Of a stretch of DNA of 64,000 nt, positions 9,102 to 63,160 are shown piece after piece. The stretch lies in the sequence record LC739532.1; one strand, written 5' to 3'. Every line of letters begins with the position of its first letter. Position 1 is the stretch's first letter. Below the pieces are notes generated by a model that was not told the DNA's origin, ran no database searches, and was given only the letters and a program-made list of their open reading frames with translations. The DNA comes from Escherichia phage phiWec177. Both the position numbers and the translations under genes were made by a program.

Positions 9102-9617
9102 TCAACTTAGTTTTGCAAACTCTCCGTGGAGTTTAATAGCAGCTTCACAGTAAGCTTTATGGGCTTCTTCTTCTGTTGTGTATGTCCCTATATGTATAGT
9201 CTTGCCATTATGGTTAATCTGGGCTTTCCACTTACCAGACTTACTTCTACTTGTACCTTTTAAGTTTTTTGATGTTCTAGGTTGTCTCCTATTAGACATG
9301 TTCTGTTCTTTTGTGGCCTCTCTTAGATTGTCCCAAGCGTTATTCAAACCATCTCCATCTTTGTGGTCAATTTGCTTATCAGGCCACTTGCCTGTCATCC
9401 AGAACCAAGCAATTCGGTGATTGCCTGTCCTGTATCCTAAAATCTGTGTGTGCATATACACACCAGACCTTGTGCGCTTAATTGCTCCGGCTTGGCTTCC
9501 AATAACCACCCTACTACTGTGTGGAGGTCTACCAATCCATGTTAAGACCCCTGTTTCGGGGTCATAATCTAACCAAGATTTTAACTGTTCATGTGTGAAT
9601 CCACAATCTCTCATCAA
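9102..9617 (-). CDS. HNH homing endonuclease (HNH plus AP2-like DNA-binding region)
   Basis: 171 aa; H..QIDHKDGDGLNNAWDNLREATKEQN HNH core; C-terminal GKWKAQI...GTYTTEEEAHKAY AP2-like; paralog of 32513-33004; overlaps polymerase stop by 4 nt. Confidence 0.75.
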   Translation of the reverse strand: MMRDCGFTHEQLKSWLDYDPETGVLTWIGRPPHSSRVVIGSQAGAIKRTRSGVYMHTQILGYRTGNHRIAWFWMTGKWPDKQIDHKDGDGLNNAWDNLREATKEQNMSNRRQPRTSKNLKGTSRSKSGKWKAQINHNGKTIHIGTYTTEEEAHKAYCEAAIKLHGEFAKLS

Positions 9618-10170
9618 TGTACCTCATACCACGACTTACCAACCTTTGCTGTACCAGTTACAAGTGTTTCTTTCCTCAAACCTAAGTTTTTTGAAGCTTG
9701 TCCATACATCCAGTCAGCAATTGCTTTCATATCCTGTGTCATACCCTCTGGACATTCCCAACTATTTTCATCGTGATATGCCAGAAGCAACCTTGCTCCG
9801 ATAGCTGGTTTTCGAGCATTCAGTTTTGTCAGGCCATCTTCACAGGCTTTTCTTGCTGCAAGGTTGATGGCCTCATTCTGAATCTGTGCTTCCGAACTCA
9901 TCAGGAGGTAGTTCAGTAGTTTATGTGGAGATTTGCACCATATCCATGCTCCAGCGACCCTGATATAACCACCTTTAGCAATTGAAGAATTCTTCCCAAA
10001 AACCTCTTCCAGAGCCTTTTTAGACGCCTTAAAATCGGCTTCTAAGCTATCAAGTAACTTCTTAATCTTTGGCAGACGCATATAGTAAGTTTGTTTAGTC
10101 AATGCACCTTCTTCCGTAGATGATGCCTTGATAGTTTTTGCAAACTTCTCGTCTCCAGCCCCGAACAATA
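9614..10170 (-). CDS. DNA polymerase (family A), exon 2
   Basis: Begins inside motif B (LFGAGDEK...) and contains motif C (LLLAYHDE); joins exon 1 to give ...KNGIYALLFGAGDEK. Confidence 0.8.
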
Positions 10171-10438
10171 CATCTGGTCAATACACTCGCAAGGTGTACC
10201 AGTTCTCTTATGAACTTCTCCGCATTTCTACGGAGTGTCGGACTATATCACGTAGTAGTAATACTACCGTTGCACTTGGGGATGGTCATTAGCTTACCAC
10301 CCTACTCTACTCAGTTCATACGTTAAGTATGCTTTTCGATAGTCTCTGAACGTTCCTCTTAAGAGGCTTCGCTGCTGATTACCATATCTTTACAGACTTA
10401 GGCTTCCAGCAATTCACAACGTTTTACATGCGCCACTG
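10171..10438 (-). mobile_element. group I self-splicing intron (ORF-less) in DNA polymerase
   Basis: Sense strand shows the P/Q/R/S core elements (AATTGCTGGAAG, AATCAGCAGCG, GTTCAGAGACTATC, TGATATAGTCC), an internal guide GCGCAT pairing with exon end ATGCGT with U:G at the splice site, and a 3' terminal G. Confidence 0.8.
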
Positions 10439-12581
10439 ACGCATAAATGCCATTTTTGCTCTTCTTACGACCTTTTGTAATCTCATGAAGAAGTTCCTCA
10501 TCCTGTGTCTCCCTACAACGAACAATATCTTCTTCCTTGTTCAGACCAAAGTAAATACTGTTAAGTGTATGCGCATCAGTACCTGTGTAGACTTCATACA
10601 AATCATTATCAGCATCGTAACGACAATATTTATCAGCCTCTGGATTTAGGTACTTATCAAGATGCTTGCAGTAGTATCGTCCATCATCCTGTTTAGTGAA
10701 CTCTACAAACTCTTTACCTTCAGTTACCGCTTTGGTGAAGTCTTTATCACCCATAAAGTTACACAGTAAAACAAGCTGTGCAGAGTTCTGGTCAACTGAA
10801 ACGATATTAGTCCCTTCCTCACAAATCCACACCTCCCTCATAGGCGCTCCATAGACAGCAGCACCAGATGGTACGTTTACAATACCATATTGTGTCATAC
10901 GTCCAGTTGAAGTGCCAAACACCATTGCACCAGCACTAAGGCGACCATCAGGACGAATCTGGTTCAACCAACCTTTTTCATCATCCTTTGAGTTCTCAAT
11001 AGTTCTGCGTCGGTGCATCAAAGTATAGTACTTAGCAATCTTCTGTCCAAGCTCACCTTCAATCGTATCATAAGATGACTCAGTAAGTTTTGGTGAAGTA
11101 CGGATTAAGCAAGGCTCAAGCAAATCTGTGTATTTCTTCACAGACCAGTTATGCTCAATGTACTGTACACCTTCATGCTCAACATAGCTCAAACCACACC
11201 GCTCAACCATTTCCTGCCACTTAGGATGCTTTGTAATCATCTTTTTATTGTCTTTGAAACGACAAACTTTGACAGGGCGACCGTCTGAGTCTTTCTTGTA
11301 GTTCCAGTCATCTGGAATCCAACCAACTGATTTCAAGTAGTCTTTAACAACTGCTACCTGAGTCATGCGAGAAACTTCGAACTCAATTGGTGTATATGGT
11401 GCATCAATCAAACCTGTGTAGCGACTTGACTCAAGTTCAAAGTGGTTAACAACGTGGCTGTTATAGTACTTCACAGTTTTGACTGTTTTTACTGGCTTCC
11501 AGTCTTTGCACTTCTTACCAATCTTTGCATTCAACTCATTGCAAATTGCACGAGCATCCTTCATTGCTACAAAACCTTCCTTGTACTCTTCACCAGTTAC
11601 AGAGTTGGTTGGTGTATAGCAATTTCTTTTTTCAATGTTAAAAATCTTTGTAGTTGGCTTACCAAATGGCTTGATTTCGTATGTCTGCATCTCACCGTTA
11701 CGCACCTGCTGACGATACTTTGTTTTAGGGTACTTGGTAATTCTTTTCAGTCCATCTGCATGACCAAATGTTTCAACATACTCATTCCAAGCTTTTGCAA
11801 ACTCTTCTCCAGTCACTTTACCTTTGGTCTTAATAGTTGGAGGTAGATGTGGTTCAACCTCTGAAGCAAGCTCATTAGTCAACTTGTCAAGTTCCTTTAC
11901 ATGGAACTCCATAAGCTCTTTATCAGCTTTCCAACCATTGATAGCTTGTTGACTCATCCAGAAAGATGTTTCTTTAGCTCGCATGTAAGTTTCATAAGTG
12001 TCTATACCACACTTCTTAAGCTTGAGATACTCGTTATCAAGTGCCCGTTTAGTTTTGGCGTTAATACGGATATCTTCTACAACACGAGTGAAGATTTCTG
12101 CATTCCACACACCCCAATGTTCAATCTCTGGCTTACGAACACCAACACGAGCACCCCATGCAGCCAAACCATGAGCACCTTTATAACCCTTTGGAGTTGG
12201 TCTATCCATCCACTGAACACGAGACTGGATAAGAGAATCCTGAAAGAAATTACTCCACGGCTTACATTTTGGATTATCAAAGTTCCATAAATCAGGTGCA
12301 ATGTGATTGAAGACCCACCAGTCATAACCGAGACCGTTATGGATGCAAAGACGTTTTGCCTTTAACGCAAATTCAACACCTTCACGTAAACCACCCTTAA
12401 TGTACTTGGTATACTTGTGACCGAGGATAGGCTCATCTGTAAAGACCCATACAGGTGGCTCTTCATCGTCAGATTTATAGTCTGCGAAAGCCATTACGTG
12501 CACTTTAGTGAACTCAAGGAGTAAACCATCAGTTTCTGTATCACCAACCAAATGTAAGTTCTTAAAATCTACGTTTTCCAT
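10439..12581 (-). CDS. DNA polymerase (family A), exon 1 (3'-5' exonuclease plus polymerase N-part)
   Basis: VGDTETDGL Exo I motif; motif A VSVDQNSAQLVLL; ends within motif B (...RKKSKNGIYA); track ORF reads through into intron to a stop at 10398. Confidence 0.85.
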
Positions 12582-25776: not shown

Positions 25777-26973
25777 ATGAACAAAGTACAGATTATTAAA
25801 AAGAATGGCTCACTTGAAGAACCTGATATCAAAAAAGTTTTAGCAGCAGTAACTAAGTCAGCTAACAGGGTTGGATATAAAGAACTCCCACCAGATGTTA
25901 CCCAAGCTCTTGAGTCAGCATTTATGAGGATTCTGGTAAAGTCCACTAAGCAGAATAATTTGCTGATTTCTGTAAATGATATTCACAGTATTGTTGAGGG
26001 TGCTTTGGCAGAAGTCAATCACGAGATTTATGAGTCTTACTCAACATATAGAAATTACCGTAAAGAAGTTGCTCAAAATTGGGATGAACTCTACCAGAAG
26101 ACCAAAGATACACTCTTCTTAGGCGACAGAGAGAATGCTAACTTTGACAGCAGTTTAATTTCTACAAAAGGTTCAATTATTCGTGGTTATCTGACTAAAG
26201 AAATCTTTAAGCAGTACCACTTAACACCAGAGGAACTTGAAGCCATTGAAAAAGGGTTTATCTACATCCATGACTTAAGAGACCTAATTTTTGGTGGTAT
26301 CAACTGTTGTCTGTTTGACATCGGTAAAGTACTGAAAGGTGGCTTTGAAATGTCTGGCATTGAATACTGTGAACCAAAGTCTGTGCTGTCGGCCTTACAG
26401 GTTATTGGTGACATAGTTCTTTCAGCAACTGCACAGCAATTTGGTGGTTTTACTTTAGCAGAGATTGATAAGGTACTTGTACCGTATGCTAAGAAGTCTC
26501 TACGCTATCATGCTGAGAAAGCAGCATCTTATGGTATTCCTAAAGAGCATTACCACAATTATGTCATGGAGCAGCTACAGATTGAACTGACTCAAGGTTT
26601 CCAGTCACTTGAAATGAAACTAAACACTGTACCTTGTAGTCGTGGGGATTTTGCATTTACAACTTTGACATTCGGGTTACTTGATTCAGATATGTCCAAT
26701 GAAGATAACCGACTGCAATATATGATTGCAAGTACTCTCCTAGATGTTCGTATGAATGGACAAGGTAAGAGCAAGAAACCTGTTGTATTCCCTAAACTGG
26801 TTTATATTTATGACCAGAAGAGACATAATGAGAATATCTGTCAATGCCACCTGTACAGTAAAGCTATTGAGTGTTGCTCTAAAGCAATGTATCCAGATTT
26901 CTTAAGTGTGTCTGGTCATGGGGCTGTAGCAGAGGCTTTTGAGCGTTCTGGCAAGGTTATTTCGCCGATGGGT
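25777..26973 (+). CDS. nrdD: anaerobic ribonucleotide reductase, exon 1
   Basis: ATP-cone start MNKVQIIKKNGSLE; exon ends ...KVISPMG immediately before in-frame TAA. Confidence 0.85.
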
Positions 26974-27715
26974 TAACAGGCTCTATAGCTCATCTAAAAC
27001 GTGCCTAAACAGGGAAACTCTACATATGTAGACAATCCTGTGCTAAATGATGTACGATGTAAGAAACTATACAACATAGGAGTCTTACATGCCAAACTAT
27101 CACGTCACTGAAGATGGAAAAGTCTTTAGGGAAAATGGTGTAGAGCTTACGCAGTGGAAATCCAACACTGGGTATATGAAAGTGAGGTTTTACGGTAAGA
27201 AGAATCGTGACATGTATGTCCACAGGTTAGTTGCTGAGAAGTATGTACCTAACCCAAATAATCTTCCAATTGTAAAACATAAGGACGATAACAAACTAAA
27301 TAACCACGCATCTAACTTAGAATGGGGTACTCATTCTGAGAATGCTAAAGAAGGTTATGAGAACGGATGCTACAAGTTCCAAAAGCGTTCATATGCCGTG
27401 AAAGCCACACACAAAGTGACAAAGGAAGTTATTGTTGCTAAGTCAATACGAGAGTTATCCAATATACTTGGACACAATCGCAAGACCATCTCTTCAATAT
27501 TGAAGGGTGTGAAAGAGCATAATAACTTTGAGTATGAGTTTGAATACATCTAAATGCCGAACGACTAACCGTGATGAATGTAGCGGTGTAGGGTCAAGCG
27601 ACTCGAAATGGTACGCTACTTAGAAATAAGTAGAAGATATAGTCTGGACTTACTGGCGACAGTAAGCAGCTTGAATAAAGCGGGGTAAGCTTAGCGAACT
27701 TACCTGAACAACAAG
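26974..27715 (+). mobile_element. group I intron in nrdD carrying an HNH homing endonuclease gene
   Basis: Exon 1 ends with U; internal guide GCTCATC near intron 5' end pairs with exon end GATGGGT; S-like element AGAAGATATAGTCTGG; intron ends with G before TGT of exon 2. Confidence 0.75.
27089..27553 (+). CDS. intron-encoded HNH homing endonuclease
   Basis: 154 aa; HKDDNKLNNHASNLEWGTHSEN HNH core. Confidence 0.75.
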   Translation: MPNYHVTEDGKVFRENGVELTQWKSNTGYMKVRFYGKKNRDMYVHRLVAEKYVPNPNNLPIVKHKDDNKLNNHASNLEWGTHSENAKEGYENGCYKFQKRSYAVKATHKVTKEVIVAKSIRELSNILGHNRKTISSILKGVKEHNNFEYEFEYI

Positions 27716-28663
27716 TGTAGAGCATTTTTATCACCATACTATAACGAATATGGTGAAGAGTTTTATGTAGGTCGTGCAAACATTGGTGCTGTATCTTTGA
27801 ACTTACCGATGATTTACCAGTATTCTAAAGAGAATGGTTTAGATTTCTGGAAAGAGCTTGATAAGTACCTAGAAATAATTCGCAGCTTCCACAAGAAACG
27901 CTACGAAATGATTGCTAATATGCCAGCAAGTTCTAACCCTCTTGCATTTACACAAGGTGGTCTGTATAAAGGAACTAAGAATCCTACTGACAGGGTTGGT
28001 TGGGATATTGTGAAGTCCTTCACAGCTTCTTTTGGGGTTACTGCGCTTGATGAGCTATCTGTTCTTGCTGAAGGTAAACGGCTTCATGAAGTTGGAAGCT
28101 GTAGTTTTACATACGATGTTCTGGCATACATTAACATGAAAACTGAAGAGTTTAAAAATGAAGACGGCTTCTTATATGCCGTCTATGGTACTCCAGCAGA
28201 ATCACTTTGCGGAACTCAGCTAAAACAGTTCAGAGATATGTTTGGCGTTATCAAAGGTGTTTCTGATAAGGAATACTTTACAAACAGTTTCCATATGAAT
28301 GTTGCAGCAGACATATCACCATTTGAGAAGCAGGACTTAGAAGAGCCATTCTTCCATATCTGTAGAGGTGGGAGAATCCAGTATGTCAGGGTAGCTAACC
28401 CAGAAAACTTAACAGCACTTAAAAGTTGTATTACCAGAGGGATGTTGAAAGGTTTTTATCAGGGGCTTAACTTTGACTTAGCAATCTGTGAACATTGTGG
28501 TAACAGACCAAAGGCTGATGTTGAAGAATGTGAGGTTTGCCATTCACATGATATCTCTGTGATTAACAGGGTGTGTGGGTATCTTGGATGGACTAAGATT
28601 AAAGGTGAATCCCGAATGAACGATGCAAAAATCGCTGAGATTCGTGATAGAGTCTCTATGTAA
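27716..28663 (+). CDS. nrdD: anaerobic ribonucleotide reductase, exon 2
   Basis: Continues CRAFLSPYYNEYGEE...; C-terminal glycyl-radical site RVCGYLG; track ORF starts at 27797. Confidence 0.85.
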   Translation, partial: CRAFLSPYYNEYGEEFYVGRANIGAVSLNLPMIYQYSKENGLDFWKELDKYLEIIRSFHKKRYEMIANMPASSNPLAFTQGGLYKGTKNPTDRVGWDIVKSFTASFGVTALDELSVLAEGKRLHEVGSCSFTYDVLAYINMKTEEFKNEDGFLYAVYGTPAESLCGTQLKQFRDMFGVIKGVSDKEYFTNSFHMNVAADISPFEKQDLEEPFFHICRGGRIQYVRVANPENLTALKSCITRGMLKGFYQGLNFDLAICEHCGNRPKADVEECEVCHSHDISVINRVCGYLGWTKIKGESRMNDAKIAEIRDRVSM

Positions 28664-28816
28664 AACTTGACAAGGTGATGTGGGTCTTGATAGGCTTACA
28701 TCACCTTTTTATTGGATGTTAGATATGACAGATAGTATTATTGGGTTGTTCATAGGTTCTGTCTTACTGGGGTTCTTTTTAGGACTCTCTTATTGTGAAT
28801 TGAGAGATAAGTTAAA

Positions 28817-59735: not shown

Positions 59736-59812
59736 CTCTGTTTAGCTCAGCTTGGTAGAGCGTTCCGTTTGGGGCGGTAAGGCCGGAGGTTCAAGTCCTC
59801 CAACAGAGACCA
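59736..59812 (+). tRNA. tRNA-Pro (anticodon TGG), tentative
   Basis: Acceptor CTCTGTT/AACAGAG, D-arm GCTC..GAGC, loop TTTGGGG, T-arm GGAGG-TTCAAGT-CCTCC, CCA encoded. Confidence 0.7.
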
Positions 59813-59819
59813 AATTAAT

Positions 59820-59894
59820 GTCGTAGAAGGCAAATGGTTAGCCACCTGACCTTCAATCAGTTGCTCGCGGGTTCGAATCCCGTCTACGACTCCA
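59820..59894 (+). tRNA. tRNA (anticodon TTC, Glu?) tentative
   Basis: Acceptor GTCGTAG/CTACGAC, T-arm GCGGG-TTCGAAT-CCCGT, CCA; anticodon loop CCTTCAA. Confidence 0.6.
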
Positions 59895-59977
59895 AATTTG
59901 ACAGAAGACCAAGTACAGCAAACAACTTTACTTTTCGCGCATAGAAAACTTAAAATTTTGGTCTGGTCATAAAAGTT

Positions 59978-60054
59978 CGCGGGTATAGAGAAAGGGCGTC
60001 TCACATGTCTCATTAGCATGGTATCGGCAGGTTCGACTCCTGCACCCGCCTCCA
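59978..60054 (+). tRNA. tRNA (anticodon CAT; Met or Ile2)
   Basis: Anticodon arm CATGT-CTCATTA-GCATG, T-arm GCAGG-TTCGACT-CCTGC, CCA. Confidence 0.65.
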
Positions 60055-60138
60055 AATTTACAGAAGACCGTTTACAGCAACATTTATTAAATTTTTAGCG
60101 GAAAAAATTGAAAGATACGGTCTGGTAATACTAAACAT

Positions 60139-60214
60139 GGTTAGGAAGCACATAAGGTATGTGCGGTCGCCTGTTAAGCGAATGGCACAGGGTTCGAATC
60201 CCTGACTAACCGCA
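60139..60214 (+). tRNA. tRNA-Asn (anticodon GTT), tentative
   Basis: D-arm GCAC..GTGC, anticodon loop CTGTTAA, T-arm CAGGG-TTCGAAT-CCCTG; 3' end lacks full CCA. Confidence 0.6.
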
Positions 60215-60223
60215 AAATTAAAT

Positions 60224-60311
60224 GTGTCGTTATCCCGTAGATGGTAGCGGTGGGGACTGTAAATCCCTTGTCATTGAGACTCGGTAGGTTCGACTCCTAC
60301 ACGGCACACCA
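60224..60311 (+). tRNA. tRNA-Tyr (anticodon GTA), class II
   Basis: Acceptor GTGTCGT/ACGGCAC, anticodon arm GGGGA-CTGTAAA-TCCCT, long variable arm, T-arm GTAGG-TTCGACT-CCTAC, CCA. Confidence 0.7.
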
Positions 60312-60333
60312 ACACTTAGCGAGATACTTAGTT

Positions 60334-60762
60334 ATGAGAGATGAAGTATACAAATCACAACTTGGTATGAGTTTGGGAACTGCACAAAACAGACTAGTAA
60401 AAGATTTGCTATTCGATTTTATATGTAAGACAAATCAAAATAGATGTTTTCAGTGCGGAAAAGAAATGACTAGGGATGATTTCTCTATCGAGCATAAGAT
60501 TCCGTGGAGACATAGTGAGAATGCAAAAGAGCTTTTCTTTTCACTAGATAATATTTCTTATAGTCATCTTAAATGTAACATGAAAGCAGCAAGACCAGCA
60601 CAGATAAGTGAAAGAAAACATAAAACAATTAAACACGGAACTGCGTATAGCTATTTTAAAGGCTGTAGATGCGATGAGTGTAGGCTGGCTAAGAATGCTG
60701 AGAGTAGAAGAAACTATAGTCCAGAAAGACGTAGGAAGAAGTATCTAAGAAATGGTACATGA
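60334..60762 (+). CDS. HNH endonuclease inside the tRNA array
   Basis: Start at internal Met (MRDEVYK...) of track ORF 60241-60762, whose N-terminal part overlaps tRNA-Tyr; CFQCGKEM...SIEHKIPW...N...HLKCN HNH pattern. Confidence 0.7.
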   Translation: MRDEVYKSQLGMSLGTAQNRLVKDLLFDFICKTNQNRCFQCGKEMTRDDFSIEHKIPWRHSENAKELFFSLDNISYSHLKCNMKAARPAQISERKHKTIKHGTAYSYFKGCRCDECRLAKNAESRRNYSPERRRKKYLRNGT

Positions 60763-60766
60763 ATTT

Positions 60767-60842
60767 GGGGTATTAGTTTAGACGGGTAAAATACGGGATT
60801 GTCTCTCCTGAGCCGCGAGTTCGATTCTCGCATACCTCGCCA
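60767..60842 (+). tRNA. tRNA-Asp (anticodon GTC), tentative
   Basis: Acceptor GGGGTAT/ATACCTC, anticodon arm CGGGA-TTGTCTC-TCCTG, T-arm GCGAG-TTCGATT-CTCGC, CCA. Confidence 0.6.
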
Positions 60843-61270
60843 ATTTTGAGAGGGCTATTTAGCCCCTCCCTTAAAGAGTTCTTACGAGTATTCTTTAAAG
60901 GAGCAGAAGACCAAATTCAGCAAGTTACTTAAAATTTCAAGCCAATTTAATTTTGAAAAATTTAAAACTTGGTCTGGCTCAACAAATTTACAGAAGACCG
61001 TTTACAGCAAAACTTAAACAATCTATTTCTCGGTAAAGAAAAGGCGAAGGTTCGATTCCTTCACTCGGCAGATGTCGAGTTGGTGTAATGGTAGCACTTA
61101 AGATGATAAACAACGGTCTGGTAATTATCTTTGTAGATAAGTTATTAAGCTTACCTGTGAGTATGCGACCACAAAGGGTGAAAGGGTAAATTCTAGATTT
61201 AAACCCAAAAAGGCACATCGCTACAGACCTTAAGCAAGTCTGGGTAGCTTATCTACAAAGATAATTTAAT

Positions 61271-61346
61271 GGAAGTGTAGCAGAATGGTGATGCGGCAGA
61301 CTTTTAATCTGACAGGCGATGGGTTCGAATCCCTCCACTTCTACCA
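61271..61346 (+). tRNA. tRNA-Lys (anticodon TTT)
   Basis: Anticodon loop CTTTTAA, T-loop TTCGAAT, acceptor GGAAGTG/CACTTCT, CCA; T-stem only 3 clear pairs. Confidence 0.6.
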
Positions 61347-61351
61347 AAAAT

Positions 61352-61428
61352 GGTTCAGTCGCAGATAAGGTAATGCAAGGGTCTCATAAGCCCTATGAAT
61401 GTGGGTTCGATTCCCATCTGAACCTCCA
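61352..61428 (+). tRNA. tRNA (anticodon CAT; Met/fMet or Ile2)
   Basis: Acceptor GGTTCAG/CTGAACC, anticodon loop CTCATAA, T-arm GTGGG-TTCGATT-CCCAT, CCA. Confidence 0.7.
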
Positions 61429-61430
61429 AT

Positions 61431-61506
61431 GCTGTGAAAGCACATATGGATGTGCATTCGGCTGATAACCGAAAGGCAGAAGGTTCAAATCCTTCTCACA
61501 GTACCA
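61431..61506 (+). tRNA. tRNA-Ile (anticodon GAT)
   Basis: Acceptor GCTGTGA/TCACAGT, D-arm GCAC..GTGC, anticodon arm TTCGG-CTGATAA-CCGAA, T-arm GAAGG-TTCAAAT-CCTTC, CCA. Confidence 0.75.
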
Positions 61507-61521
61507 ATTTCAATAAAGTTG

Positions 61522-61550
61522 TTGACATTGAGATGTGACTACTTTATAGT
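61522..61550 (+). promoter_or_regulatory. sigma70-like promoter inside tRNA array
   Basis: TTGACA-17 bp-TATAGT. Confidence 0.5.
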
Positions 61551-61754
61551 AACCTTAGTTTTCGTTGCGTAGCGTCTATTTTGCAAATTTAAAATAAATG
61601 CAAACGACAATGTTTTTCTGGCAGTAGCTTGATAGGCTAAACACCAGTGAGGTCTTCCAATCCCTCATCAAAGAATTTGGCGTACTCGCCCACGGTATGA
61701 TTAATAAGGTGGGCATCTTTAAGGGCTTTCTAAGAGAGTCTTTAAAGATAATTA

Positions 61755-61836
61755 CGGGGCGTATCTCAGCTGTCTTCTAAACAGCCGTTAACCGAGTAAG
61801 TGGAGTATGCGGGTTCGAGTCCTGCCGCCTCGACCA
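61755..61836 (+). tRNA. non-canonical tRNA-like element (Arg TCT-like anticodon arm, no clear D-arm)
   Basis: Acceptor CGGGGCG/CGCCTCG, perfect arm GCTGT-CTTCTAA-ACAGC, T-arm GCGGG-TTCGAGT-CCTGC, CCA; only 7 nt between acceptor and anticodon arm, 23 nt before T-arm. Confidence 0.4.
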
Positions 61837-61979
61837 ATTTAGTTAGCAGATTACTTAGACGACCTAAGCGGGTCTTCCTGTAGGGAGGTGGTCTGTATCT
61901 CATGTTTTCAAGAACATGTAAATAATCTGAGAAGGGGCTTTACAGTGTTGAGATAATACGGTAAGCTTCGAATTATAGT

Positions 61980-62062
61980 ATGGGACGATGTTAAGACTCT
62001 AAGGCATGAGCAACGGCCTCCAAAACCGTTTCAAAGGGGTTCAACTCCTCCGTCCCATGCCA
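61980..62062 (+). tRNA. non-canonical tRNA-like element (anticodon undetermined)
   Basis: Acceptor ATGGGAC/GTCCCAT with CCA, T-loop TTCAACT; internal stem AACGG-CCTCCAAAA-CCGTT has a 9-nt loop. Confidence 0.4.
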
Positions 62063-62075
62063 AAGTCTTATTAGG

Positions 62076-62165
62076 GGTAGGTAGCGGCTAATGGTAGCCA
62101 AACTGTCTTGAAAACAGTTGCCACTGTAGAGATACGGTGAGGGTTCGACTCCTTTACTTACCGCC
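62076..62165 (+). tRNA. tRNA-Ser (anticodon TGA), class II
   Basis: 3-bp D-stem, anticodon arm ACTGT-CTTGAAA-ACAGT, about 20-nt variable arm, T-arm GAGGG-TTCGACT-CCTTT; CC only at 3' end. Confidence 0.65.
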
Positions 62166-62423
62166 TAATAAGATTTAATTCCCGCGCTCGTCTAACAAGC
62201 TCGGTTTTTACTCGTGTATTGGCGTACACGGCACGACTATAAAGCACCTAGTAGGTGTCGCGGAGAAGAGATAGTATCAAGCTCTCCAAAGGTTCTAGTC
62301 ACCGGATTAAACAAGACTATGCAAAGACCTTTTTAGGTCTTTTTAGAGGGCTTCTAAGGTTATTACAGCTTGTTGTGGAACCTTGTTGCTTAGGTTCTTA
62401 GAAGTTCTCTAAAAAGGTTTAAT

Positions 62424-62501
62424 GGGAGATTGACGGTAATTGGTAAACCTACCATCCTTAGAAGTTGGTGTTTGAGGGTTCGAATCCCTTGTCTCCCACC
62501 A
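62424..62501 (+). tRNA. tRNA (anticodon TAG?, Leu-like but short variable arm), tentative
   Basis: Acceptor GGGAGAT/GTCTCCC, T-arm GAGGG-TTCGAAT-CCCTT, CCA; anticodon arm has one mismatch. Confidence 0.5.
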
Positions 62502-62508
62502 AATTAAT

Positions 62509-62584
62509 GCAGGTGTAGCAAAATGGTTATGCGGCTGACTCTTAATCAGTAAGACGATGGGTTCAATTCCCTCCACCTGTACCA
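62509..62584 (+). tRNA. tRNA-Lys (anticodon CTT), paralog of 61271-61346
   Basis: Anticodon loop CTCTTAA, acceptor GCAGGTG/CACCTGT, CCA; same weak T-stem as the TTT copy. Confidence 0.6.
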
Positions 62585-62590
62585 AACAAT

Positions 62591-62666
62591 GGGGTCATAG
62601 TTTATATGGTTAAAATTCGAGTTTTGCAAACTTGGGAACTGAGTTCAATTCTCAGTGACTCCACCA
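62591..62666 (+). tRNA. tRNA-Ala (anticodon TGC)
   Basis: Acceptor GGGGTCA/TGACTCC, anticodon arm CGAGT-TTTGCAA-ACTTG, T-arm CTGAG-TTCAATT-CTCAG, CCA. Confidence 0.7.
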
Positions 62667-62672
62667 ATTAGT

Positions 62673-62747
62673 GCATCCATAGTTTAAACGGGAAAATTAC
62701 AGTCTTCCAAACTGAGGTTGAGGGTTCGATTCCCTCTGGATGCTCCA
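62673..62747 (+). tRNA. tRNA-Gly (anticodon TCC)
   Basis: Acceptor GCATCCA/TGGATGC perfect, anticodon loop CTTCCAA, T-arm GAGGG-TTCGATT-CCCTC, CCA. Confidence 0.75.
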
Positions 62748-62753
62748 AATAAT

Positions 62754-62830
62754 GCTGCTTTCGTATAATTGGCTATTACACATCCCTTGTAAGGATGGAG
62801 ATGCGGGTTCAAGTCCTGTGAGCAGCACCA
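62754..62830 (+). tRNA. tRNA-Thr (anticodon TGT)
   Basis: Anticodon arm CATCC-CTTGTAA-GGATG perfect, acceptor GCTGCTT/GAGCAGC, CCA. Confidence 0.75.
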
Positions 62831-62925
62831 ATTCAGAGGTCAAGTGAAAGACCGCTGGTGTCAACTGAAGACCGTAACAAATTCCACGGAGTTGAGTTAG
62901 CGGCACAACTTCAGACCTCTTTCAC

Positions 62926-63000
62926 ACTCGCTTAGTTTATATGGTAAAACATCACCCTTACAAGATGAAGAAAAAGGTTCAAGTCCTTTAGTGAGTACCA
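62926..63000 (+). tRNA. tRNA-Val (anticodon TAC), tentative
   Basis: T-arm AAAGG-TTCAAGT-CCTTT perfect, acceptor ACTCGCT/AGTGAGT, anticodon loop CTTACAA, CCA. Confidence 0.6.
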
Positions 63001-63001
63001 T

Positions 63002-63079
63002 GTTCCAGTATCCCAATTGGCAGAGGATGCAAGCTCAAACCTTGTATTAGTGACGGTTCGAATCCGTCTTGGAACACCA
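63002..63079 (+). tRNA. tRNA (anticodon CAA?), tentative
   Basis: T-arm GACGG-TTCGAAT-CCGTC perfect, acceptor GTTCCAG/TTGGAAC, anticodon arm GCAAG-CTCAAAC-CTTGT, CCA; short variable arm is unusual for Leu. Confidence 0.55.
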
Positions 63080-63084
63080 ATTTT

Positions 63085-63160
63085 GCAGGATTAGTTCAAA
63101 TGGATAGAGCAACAGTCTACGAAGCTGTTAATAGGGGTTCGAATCCCTTATCCTGCGCCA
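63085..63160 (+). tRNA. tRNA-Arg (anticodon ACG)
   Basis: Acceptor GCAGGAT/ATCCTGC perfect, anticodon arm ACAGT-CTACGAA-GCTGT, T-loop TTCGAAT, CCA. Confidence 0.75.

Follow-up and report, generated by a model that had tools for sequence, protein, structure and literature searches.

The nrdD gene of Escherichia phage phiWec177 very probably carries a T4 td-type mobile group I intron (subgroup IA2, without P2), whose insertion point separates the Gly codon of the SPMG-CR loop from its Cys codon. This reading is based on the colinearity of the two gene pieces, on a covarying RNA fold, on the family of the intron-encoded endonuclease, on the presence/absence polymorphism of the insert among related phages, and on an exon tract that is linked to it. 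The window, i.e. the whole stretch of 64,000 nucleotides that was analysed (record LC739532.1), belongs to a Felixounavirus (Felix O1-like), and at the nrdD locus it is 100% identical to Escherichia phage phiWec172. All features described here lie on the plus strand unless otherwise stated. In other words, we appear to see a textbook mobile group I intron, placed at the most conserved codons of a gene with an essential function.

Exon 1 (25777-26973, 399 codons) encodes the ATP-cone and, of the NrdD barrel, the N-terminal half. Its open reading frame (25777-26976) gives a protein ending in ...VISPMG, with the final codon GGT at 26971-26973 and an in-frame TAA at 26974-26976, which is how the initial annotation had read the exon end (...ISPMG at a U, then an in-frame TAA). 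The intron covers 26974-27715 (742 nt), opens with this in-frame UAA and closes with a 3'-terminal guanosine, G27715; the insert length, the closing G and the resumption of the gene at the next base had all been proposed correctly. Exon 2 (27716-28663, 315 codons) starts with TGT AGA GCA ... (CRAFLSPYYNEYGEE), its protein begins CRAFLSPYY, and it supplies the glycyl-radical domain as well as the Zn-Cys cluster at the C-terminus.

The two pieces are colinear on the Pfam NRDD profile (562 positions), exon 1 matching ATP-cone and NRDD positions 1-250 and exon 2 matching positions 264-560 and Gly_radical. In-silico excision of the 742 nt gives a 714-aa NrdD (ca. 80 kDa), the same length as the intact NrdD of wV8, to which the spliced product is 98% identical in a single tblastn segment; the protein of exon 1 alone shows 98% amino-acid identity to wV8 residues 1-399. 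The same agreement is seen at the nucleotide level, i.e. the wV8 nrdD of 2145 nt equals the 1197 + 948 nt of the two exons. The homologs are one continuous gene and not two independent ones. The intron-less alleles are uninterrupted at the junction (...CCGATGGGT followed by TGC/TGT...) and the edges of the insert agree with them to the base, while the predicted junction of the ligated exons reads ...CCGAUGGGU followed by UGUAGAGCA.... The junction falls between the Gly and Cys codons; the PDB NrdD chains 9d3x and T4 1h78 align over SPMG-CR without a gap, and the Cys of exon 2 is aligned with Cys290 of T4 NrdD. An intein was ruled out, as UAA comes right after the last codon of exon 1 and 742 is not divisible by 3, and a frameshift reading of the split gene was rejected. 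Downstream of nrdD there is a terminator-like hairpin with a T-run (28672-28707), and the equivalent site of wV8 is annotated as a Rho-independent terminator. A scan of the region for sigma-70 promoters gave nothing beyond the expectation from shuffles.

The edges of the insert coincide with the two helices by which a group I intron is predicted to hold its exons. The exon strand of P1, GAUGGGU (26967-26973), pairs at all 7 of 7 positions with GCUCAUC (26988-26994), the second part of the internal guide (26981-26994), and the splice-site wobble is U26973.G26988; the pairing of exactly these two motifs had been noticed in the initial annotation. Position -6 of the P1 exon strand covaries with the guide: the pair is G:C here, whereas Vequintavirus and phi92 have C:G and a Vibrio phage has U:G. 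The first part of the guide, CUCUAUA (26981-26987), lies directly 5' of the P1 strand and forms P10 with UGUAGAG of exon 2, again with 7 of 7 bases paired. P10 covaries as well (UGCC/GGCA in the Vibrio phage, UGUAG/CUAUA in Vequintavirus and phi92). This helix was judged by hand, and its low score in the structure count below is due to misalignment by MAFFT, which also affected the P1 and P2 helices of td and of the sequences L030 and L041.

The catalytic core is divided into two halves. The 5' half (27000-27054) consists of the 5' strand of P3 (27000-27005), P4 (27009-27014 with 27036-27041), P5 (27019-27023 with 27028-27032) and the 5' strands of P6 (27042-27043) and P6a (27049-27054). The 3' half (27545-27704) begins with the 3' strand of P6a (27545-27550), which is made of the last endonuclease codons, and continues with the 3' strand of P6 (27556-27557), P7 (27563-27567 with 27640-27644), P7.1 (ACCG with CGGU, 27568-27571 with 27584-27587), P7.2 (GGGUC with GACUC, 27591-27595 with 27600-27604), the 3' strand of P3 (27610-27615), P8 (27616-27633), P9 (27649-27666), P9.1 (27669-27681) and P9.2 (27684-27704). 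The S-like element that had been suspected near the 3' end is found at 27634-27644 (AAGATATAGTC). P7.1 and P7.2 between P7 and the 3' strand of P3 are a mark of subgroup IA2 (the T4 td/nrdB/sunY type). The sequence thus supports assignment of the intron to group I, subgroup IA2, as a td-like member without P2 and with a predicted fold that is complete from P1 and P10 to P9.2.

The fold was counted on 11 relatives. In this set 95.7% of the cells are paired, a percentage biased toward the window sequence because the structure was drawn from it, and changes on both sides are seen in 35 of the 77 pairs, a count that is less affected. The covariation score is 0.391 as compared to 0.148 in shuffles (0 of 500 shuffles as high), and pairing falls to 31-42% when the 3' partners are shifted by 1-3 columns. 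Pairing is 100% in each of P3, P4, P6, P6a, P7 and P8, including the P3/P7 pseudoknot, and in P5 the same is true of the four outer pairs, with the single innermost pair poorly aligned. Compensatory changes were found in P3 (4 of 6 pairs), P4 (2), P5 (2), P6a (5) and P8 (6), whereas P7 and P6 are invariant among the compared relatives. P7.1 and P7.2 are each ca. 97% paired and have compensatory changes, and covariation is also present in P9, P9.1 and P9.2.

At the gathering threshold, Rfam reports in the whole window only another group I intron, on the minus strand (10218-10501). The nrdD intron itself matches RF00028 with 33.1 bits (E = 1.6e-6 in a 901-nt search; 27486-27666, i.e. in the 3' half of the insert), below the gathering score of 50, and a second partial match (27009-27092) has 16.1 bits. 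The full intron remains under the threshold because the 465-nt ORF in P6a splits the model: the natural 316-nt ORF-less allele of phage REP5, 98% identical to the intron core of the window, scores 53.6 bits. The original proposal of a group I intron is supported, given that the full covarying fold is homologous to that of the T4 td intron and that the ORF-less derivative passes the Rfam threshold.

A different view of the locus would be that a free-standing homing endonuclease gene has split nrdD, and that the halves are translated separately and assemble without RNA splicing. Most GenBank records do present two separate nrdD CDSs and an HNH gene, and a precedent exists in nrdA/mobE of Aeromonas phage Aeh1 (PMC3653736). 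We nevertheless regard this as exceedingly improbable, as a complete covarying group I core lies on both sides of the ORF, the break is inside the conserved SPMG-CR loop, and the insert edges are those of P1 and P10. In addition, a C-terminal fragment with the Cys aligned to T4 Cys290 would have no start codon and no ribosome-binding site. The frame of exon 2 has an in-frame TAG at 27692, 7 codons upstream of the exon, no start codon was found between this TAG and the Cys codon at 27716, and the frame runs 27 codons downstream from the Cys before it reaches its earliest start-like codon. Splicing of the intron would therefore be needed for NrdD function.

It could also be argued that the ribozyme has lost efficient splicing and that nrdD is a pseudogene in this phage, as nrdD is dispensable during aerobic laboratory growth. 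Such decay is highly unlikely. Every core helix is intact in the window copy, both exons are open and show 98% amino-acid identity to the intact wV8 NrdD over the full length, and ca. 60 ORF-containing and ca. 35 ORF-less records retain the arrangement, with 92-100% nucleotide identity.

A mobile td-type intron is also in accordance with the ORF that it carries. The putative HNH homing endonuclease gene (27089-27553, 154 aa) is located in the P6a loop, inside the intron as first described, and its product matches Pfam HNH_3 with 41.2 bits (cut-off 24.8). It is similar to I-HmuI (PDB 1u3e; E = 3e-9, residues 3-152 of 154, ca. 30% identity) and to phrog_59 (E = 2e-42), and the residues H64, N76 and N85 of the HNH motif correspond to the catalytic His and to both Asn residues of I-HmuI. 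By these sequence matches the protein is classed as a full-length HNH endonuclease of the I-HmuI type, which supports its earlier designation as an HNH homing endonuclease. On the other hand, the Asp that precedes the catalytic His of I-HmuI is aligned with a Lys, so endonuclease activity should not be taken for granted. Vequintavirus (48% identity) and Vibrio phages (40%) have orthologs at the identical site of their nrdD genes.

The start of this gene is covered by a hairpin (27057-27090) that takes in the Shine-Dalgarno sequence AGGAG (27078-27082) as well as the AU of the start codon AUG. Its stability is moderately better than that of shuffles (-9.8 kcal/mol, z = -2.5), and the counterpart in Vequintavirus is more stable (-12.4 kcal/mol, z = -3.9), whereas in the Vibrio homolog such a hairpin was looked for and is absent. 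By analogy with T4 I-TevI and I-TevII, as well as with I-TevIII, which is carried by T4 nrdB (PMC2988022), the hairpin may take part in translational control of the endonuclease.

Three allele classes occur in Felixounaviruses: without intron (ca. 60%; among them wV8 and KhF1), with an ORF-less intron (ca. 14%; among them REP5 and EC6) and with the full intron (ca. 24%). The ORF-less allele is an in-frame deletion of 426 nt that leaves the mini-ORF MPNNFEYEFEYI. All sampled intron-containing alleles have in common a mostly synonymous tract at the beginning of exon 2 (27716-27772, +1 to ca. +57), which is shorter on one IMG/VR contig (L054). In this tract the identity between intron-containing and intron-less alleles is 76%, while it is 96% and 92% within the two classes, and outside the tract, within +/-300 nt, the two classes are 93-96% identical to each other. 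The sharp boundary of the tract, together with a between-class identity that elsewhere equals the within-class identity, suggests that the intron and its flank moved among recombining backgrounds. From the sequence, the ca. 55-bp tract fits homing with co-conversion.

It may still be that the intron splices and the HNH protein is inactive, i.e. that the element is inherited vertically and decays, and that the polymorphism reflects loss and not ongoing homing. The common ORF-less deletion derivatives, the Lys beside the catalytic His, and a C-terminus shortened by a GAA-to-UAA change in comparison to the Vequintavirus and Vibrio orthologs (ending in ...EMPND-stop) would agree with this. Nevertheless the ORF is intact with 93-100% amino-acid identity in many isolates from different continents, the His and both Asn of the motif are conserved with respect to I-HmuI, and the bounded tract points to movement of intron and flank. 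We consider loss of activity unlikely, though it deserves consideration.

If the td-type intron is mobile and active, the following course of events is expected. A single pre-mRNA would be made from nrdD, and ribosomes translating exon 1 would halt at the UAA with which the intron begins. In the folded RNA the guide would bring both exons together via P1 and P10; with P7 as its binding site, an exogenous guanosine would attack 3' of U26973, the freed 3'-OH of exon 1 would attack 3' of G27715, and the ligated mRNA would be translated to the 714-aa NrdD. The I-HmuI-like endonuclease would be made from the P6a loop, its ribosome-binding site being sequestered in the hairpin. In mixed infection it may nick or cut intron-less nrdD alleles close to the insertion site, and repair on intron-containing genomes would copy in the intron and ca. 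55 bp of exon 2. Splicing in vivo, as well as the activity and the cut site of the endonuclease, are predicted here from the features described above.

A more far-reaching reading has three parts which, taken jointly, we judge to have a little less than an even chance. First, the 154-aa protein would be a strand-specific nickase in the style of I-HmuI, with its recognition site within the first ca. 55 bp of exon 2; I-HmuI and I-BasI themselves nick only one of the strands and recognise mostly 3'-exon sequence. Second, the exon-2 tract, in which a C-to-U change at +3 completes P10, would be both a co-conversion footprint and a record of the recognition site. Third, one intron/endonuclease pair would have spread among no fewer than four unrelated phage lineages (Felixounavirus, Vequintavirus, phi92-like phages and Vibrio phages), with the invariant Cys-loop codons as its target. 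The same nrdD site holds related pairs in Vequintavirus and Vibrio phages, and in phi92 an intron without the ORF, which also speaks for the mobility of the element; in Aeromonas phage phiA009 and in roughly half of the IMG/VR pattern matches the related cores lie in other genes, and these were left out of the site analysis. Should all three parts be true, the stages of the homing cycle (empty, invaded and endonuclease-deleted) would be present within one genus, for two separate introns.

The element as such is already known. Near-identical copies are annotated in many related phages, and a nrdD split with a homing endonuclease has been published for Felix-like phages (PMC4837284, citing Moreno Switt 2013). 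The record of Bas63 has a joined nrdD CDS with the endonuclease gene inside, and in the BASEL paper comparative genomics was used to set intron boundaries. A literature search for a Felixounavirus group I intron found nothing, and for any Felixounavirus no paper was found that describes the ribozyme structure or tests splicing. The founding genome paper of the genus reportedly mentions no introns. In the phiWec172 record all three ORFs are hypothetical proteins, and phiWec172 and most Felixounavirus records list nrdD either as a pair of truncated genes or as hypothetical proteins, where one 714-aa enzyme, made after splicing, would be the correct product. With empty, ORF-containing and ORF-deleted alleles side by side and an intron-linked tract, Felixounavirus nrdD is a handy natural system for homing and co-conversion, and one that opens no new question.

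The closest copies are those of the Felixounaviruses FSL SP-010/012, UAB_Phi87, Mushroom, Bas63 JohannRWettstein and others, with 92-100% nucleotide identity over the full 2887 nt and no difference of substance. Outside the genus, phi92 ('spliced variant'), Vequintavirus (241Ecol014PP, A13b) and Vibrio phages F95/F89 have an intron at the same insertion point, before the Cys of (S/Y)MG-CRS. These introns share the td-like core and its P7.1 loop UGAUGAAUGUAG, with a core identity of ca. 70-75%, and their P1 guide is likewise GCUCAUG/C. In Vequintavirus and Vibrio phages P6a contains a related I-HmuI-like HNH ORF that ends inside the core, is 40-48% identical and has a C-terminus five residues longer than the Felixounavirus ORF, whereas phi92 and several IMG/VR copies have the intron without an ORF. 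Unlike in Felixounavirus, nrdD of Vequintavirus and Vibrio phages has further introns upstream.

The closest experimentally characterised ribozyme is the T4 td intron, with ca. 71% identity (T4/RB3 td) over the 3' 160 nt and the same IA2 layout, i.e. P7.1, P7.2, P9.1, P9.2 and a P6a-loop ORF whose end overlaps the core. It differs in being located in the thymidylate synthase gene, in having a P2 hairpin, and in its endonuclease I-TevI, which is of the GIY-YIG and not of the HNH family. The T4 nrdD (sunY) intron shares the host gene and belongs to the same general class, mobile group I introns of type IA in RNR genes of phages, but it is inserted at about residue 180 of T4 NrdD, ca. 110 codons upstream of the Cys290 site, and it encodes the GIY-YIG endonuclease I-TevII and not an HNH protein. 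Orthology with this intron is ruled out by the insertion site and the endonuclease family.

With respect to the endonuclease, the known counterparts are I-HmuI and I-BasI, intron-encoded HNH enzymes from the DNA polymerase genes of the Bacillus phages SPO1 and Bastille, and the I-BasI genes are among the tblastn matches of the 154-aa ORF. The similarity to I-HmuI (1u3e) spans the N-terminal beta domain, the HNH motif and the C-terminal helix-turn-helix region, though the identity is as low as given above and both the host gene and the host phylum differ. Finally, in nrdA/mobE of Aeh1, too, an HNH endonuclease gene physically divides a gene for an RNR (PMC3653736). There, however, a ribozyme is missing and the halves are translated independently, whereas the nrdD described here has a full ribozyme and a C-terminal half that lacks a Cys-including start codon.

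The initial annotation described a gene for the anaerobic (class III) ribonucleotide reductase, nrdD, split by a group I intron that encodes an HNH homing endonuclease. Each of its features was found where it had been placed, and the interpretation is correct, being borne out by a covarying core and by the exact colinearity of the exons. The ORF 25777-26976 ends in ...VISPMG, the last sense codon of exon 1 (25777-26973) being GGT (26971-26973), followed by an in-frame TAA. The insert (26974-27715) spans 742 nt, with G as its last nucleotide, and exon 2 (27716-28663) resumes with the codons TGT AGA GCA..., translated as CRAFLSPYYNEYGEE. The exons fall colinearly on the Pfam NRDD profile (positions 1-250 and 264-560 of 562), with an ATP-cone domain in exon 1 and a glycyl-radical domain in exon 2. 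Solved NrdD structures (9d3x and T4 1h78) align without gaps over SPMG|CR. Fusion of nucleotides 26973 and 27716 yields a product of 714 aa, and the uninterrupted nrdD of phage wV8, whose 2145 nt are exactly 1197 + 948 nt, aligns with this product as one tblastn segment at 98% identity. In the intron-less alleles the sequence ...CCGATGGGT|TGC... is continuous, i.e. gap-free at the predicted junction. The Cys at the start of exon 2 is residue 290 in T4 NrdD numbering, the thiyl-radical residue of the class III enzyme. In the frame of exon 2 there is a TAG at 27692 and no start codon from there to 27716, the earliest start-like codon lying 27 codons past the Cys codon; without splicing, therefore, no polypeptide could include the Cys290 equivalent.

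The 2887-nt region is identical (100%) to that of Escherichia phage phiWec172 (LC739530.1), in whose record all three ORFs are merely labelled hypothetical proteins, and dozens of Felix O1-like phages (genus Felixounavirus) share 92-97% identity with the region. The majority of the other records show an HNH homing endonuclease between two annotated ribonucleotide reductase fragments, and that of Bas63 has joined exons with the endonuclease gene in between; the BASEL paper used comparative genomics to set intron boundaries. PMC4837284, citing Moreno Switt 2013, already describes a split nrdD with a homing endonuclease in Felix-like phages. The nrdD intron belongs to a well-known class, is ordinary within it and has been annotated before; our literature search found no paper on the structure of the Felixounavirus nrdD ribozyme or testing its splicing. 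We note that MG065677.1 and MG065664.1 ("Campylobacter phage A13b/A132") and GU169904.1 ("Staphylococcus phage SA1") contain coliphage sequence, Vequintavirus-like or Felixounavirus-like, and their host labels look unreliable; MG065677.1 carries an UNVERIFIED flag, with Vequintavirus given as its lineage. The window also carries 16 tRNA genes clustered at 59736-63157 (plus strand), which is typical for Felix O1-like phages.

The group I model search recommended in the initial annotation gave a divided answer: the window copy was missed at the Rfam gathering threshold, whereas the natural ORF-less allele of REP5 (316 nt, 98% identical to the window across the shared intron sequence) reached 53.6 bits against the RF00028 threshold of 50. 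A permissive scan of the window found two collinear sub-threshold RF00028 fragments with the ORF between them, one covering P4-P6 (16.1 bits) and the other P6' to P9 (33.1 bits, E = 1.6e-6). By blastn, the 3' 160 nt of the intron are about 71% identical to the T4/RB3 td intron, and further related introns occur in Vequintavirus, phi92, Vibrio, Aeromonas and Pseudomonas phages. Cores with an identical P7.1 loop (UGAUGAAUGUAG) were also seen in non-nrdD genes at nine phage or IMG/VR loci (L008, L025, L030, L041, L044, L046, L047, L053 and L055). In Aeromonas phage phiA009 (L008, 800-2160) two such cores apparently follow one another within a gene labelled hypothetical, and one is adjoined by an HNH ORF.

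The fold was drawn on the window sequence (P1, P10, P3, P4, P5, P6, P6a, P7, P7.1, P7.2, P8, P9, P9.1, P9.2) and counted on an alignment of 11 cores, namely two Felixounavirus variants, Vibrio F95, four Vequintavirus-type copies, phi92, RB3 td and two IMG/VR introns from another gene. Standard pairs fill 95.7% of the cells, a figure inflated because the structure was derived from one aligned sequence, which does not inflate the compensatory counts: both-sided changes occur in 35 of the 77 pairs. The covariation score was 0.391 vs 0.148 in shuffles, none of which (0/500) reached it, and sliding the 3' partners by 1-3 columns lowered pairing to 31-42% and left only 4-11 compensatory pairs. Checked by hand, P1 joins the 5'-exon terminus GAUGGGU to GCUCAUC (7/7 pairs, U.G at the splice site), and exon position -6 covaries with its guide partner, i.e. 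G:C in the window, C:G in Vequintavirus and phi92, and U:G in the Vibrio phage. P10, also by hand, pairs CUCUAUA, which abuts the P1 guide, with UGUAGAG of exon 2 (7/7 pairs), its equivalent in the Vibrio phage being UGCC with GGCA. P2 is absent from the fold, which together with the presence of P7.1 and P7.2 indicates a td-like intron of subgroup IA2.

The 154-aa ORF at 27089-27553 matches Pfam HNH_3, in accordance with the initial annotation. Over its whole length (residues 3-152), the 154-aa protein aligns with I-HmuI, the HNH endonuclease from the DNA polymerase intron of SPO1 (PDB 1u3e, E = 3e-9), and it also matches phrog_59 (E = 2e-42). Its HNH motif retains the His and both Asn of I-HmuI, and Lys takes the place of the I-HmuI Asp preceding the motif His. 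Its nearest relatives outside Felixounavirus, in Vequintavirus (48% identity) and Vibrio phages (40%), lie in introns at the identical nrdD site. The ORF is within the P6a loop, its final codons (UAC AUC) supplying the 3' strand of P6a. The reading frame continues to ...EMPND* in the Vequintavirus and Vibrio orthologs, with the UAA stop within P7, whereas in the window a GAA-to-UAA change places the stop five codons earlier, MPND* still being in frame. AGGAG and part of the AUG lie within a hairpin at 27057-27090 (-9.8 kcal/mol, z = -2.5); this hairpin is stronger in the Vequintavirus counterpart and missing in the Vibrio one, and its resemblance to the way the RBS is sequestered in I-TevI, II and III (PMC2988022) is only suggestive. 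Taken as a whole, the nrdD insert is very probably a group I intron that splices and carries the gene of an I-HmuI-like homing endonuclease, splicing and endonuclease activity being what we infer.

A 600-nt spliced-junction query matched 246 phage records, and a sample of 60 rows contained three allele classes: intron-less (600 nt in one piece; wV8, KhF1, VpaE1, ekra), ORF-less intron (span 916 nt, i.e. a 316-nt insert; REP5, EC6, momo) and full intron with ORF (span 1342 nt, i.e. a 742-nt insert; window, SP-010, Bas63). The combined searches gave rough totals of ~60, ~35 and ~150 records for full intron, ORF-less intron and empty site, respectively. The ORF-less allele has a clean in-frame deletion of 426 nt within the ORF, leaving MPNNFEYEFEYI, and is therefore derived from the full element rather than ancestral to it.

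The exon flanks (+/-300 nt) of seven intron-containing and seven intron-less alleles were compared. Identity between the classes was 93% at -290 to -1 (91% within the intron-containing and 96% within the intron-less class), 76% at +1 to +57 (96% and 92%) and 96% at +58 to +290 (95% and 96%). The substitutions in the +1 to +57 tract (27716-27772) are almost all synonymous and include the P10-completing U at +3. Such a tract is what homing accompanied by one-sided co-conversion of exon 2 is expected to leave. In the IMG/VR contig L054 the intron is accompanied by a shorter tract, intron-type to about +21 and intron-less type beyond, and such differing end-points suggest variable co-conversion tract lengths. 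In practical terms, the locus offers an annotation correction and neatly illustrates the homing cycle in nature.

A second, ORF-less group I intron is found on the minus strand at about 10172-10501 (RF00028 match 10218-10501, 63.8 bits, E = 7e-14). The gene it interrupts encodes the family-A DNA polymerase, whose two parts are the minus-strand ORFs 10398-12581 and 9614-10168; the break appears to fall within motif B (...KSKNGIYA / LFGAGDEKFAK...). This intron is polymorphic in Felixounaviruses: it is absent in SP116, HY02 and FO1a, ORF-less in the window, and extended by about 540 nt, with an endonuclease annotated, in SP-107, FM4b and Sl26. A 2023 paper lists "two introns" for one Felixounavirus; the original Felix O1 paper reported none, which is consistent with empty sites in Felix O1-type genomes, such as the DNA polymerase site of FO1a. 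Directly downstream of DNA polymerase exon 2 is a 171-aa ORF (9102-9617, minus strand), whose product, judged from an HNH-like motif (HKDGDGLNN) and an AP2-like C-terminal region recognized by eye, is probably a free-standing homing endonuclease.

The Gly|Cys site of nrdD is also occupied by an intron in Vequintavirus and Vibrio phages and likewise in phi92, whose record carries a "spliced variant" annotation. In Vibrio phage F95 (L002, 1-3700) and Escherichia phage 241Ecol014PP (L009, 233-3162) nrdD is in three or more pieces, with an extra insert upstream of the Gly|Cys intron that in F95 has a 309-aa HNH ORF. The T4 nrdD intron, in contrast, is a different element, located near residue 180 of T4 NrdD instead of the Gly|Cys site and encoding the GIY-YIG enzyme I-TevII. 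I-HmuI and I-BasI read 3'-exon sequence, and the exon-2 tract would fit a predicted enzyme that does the same.
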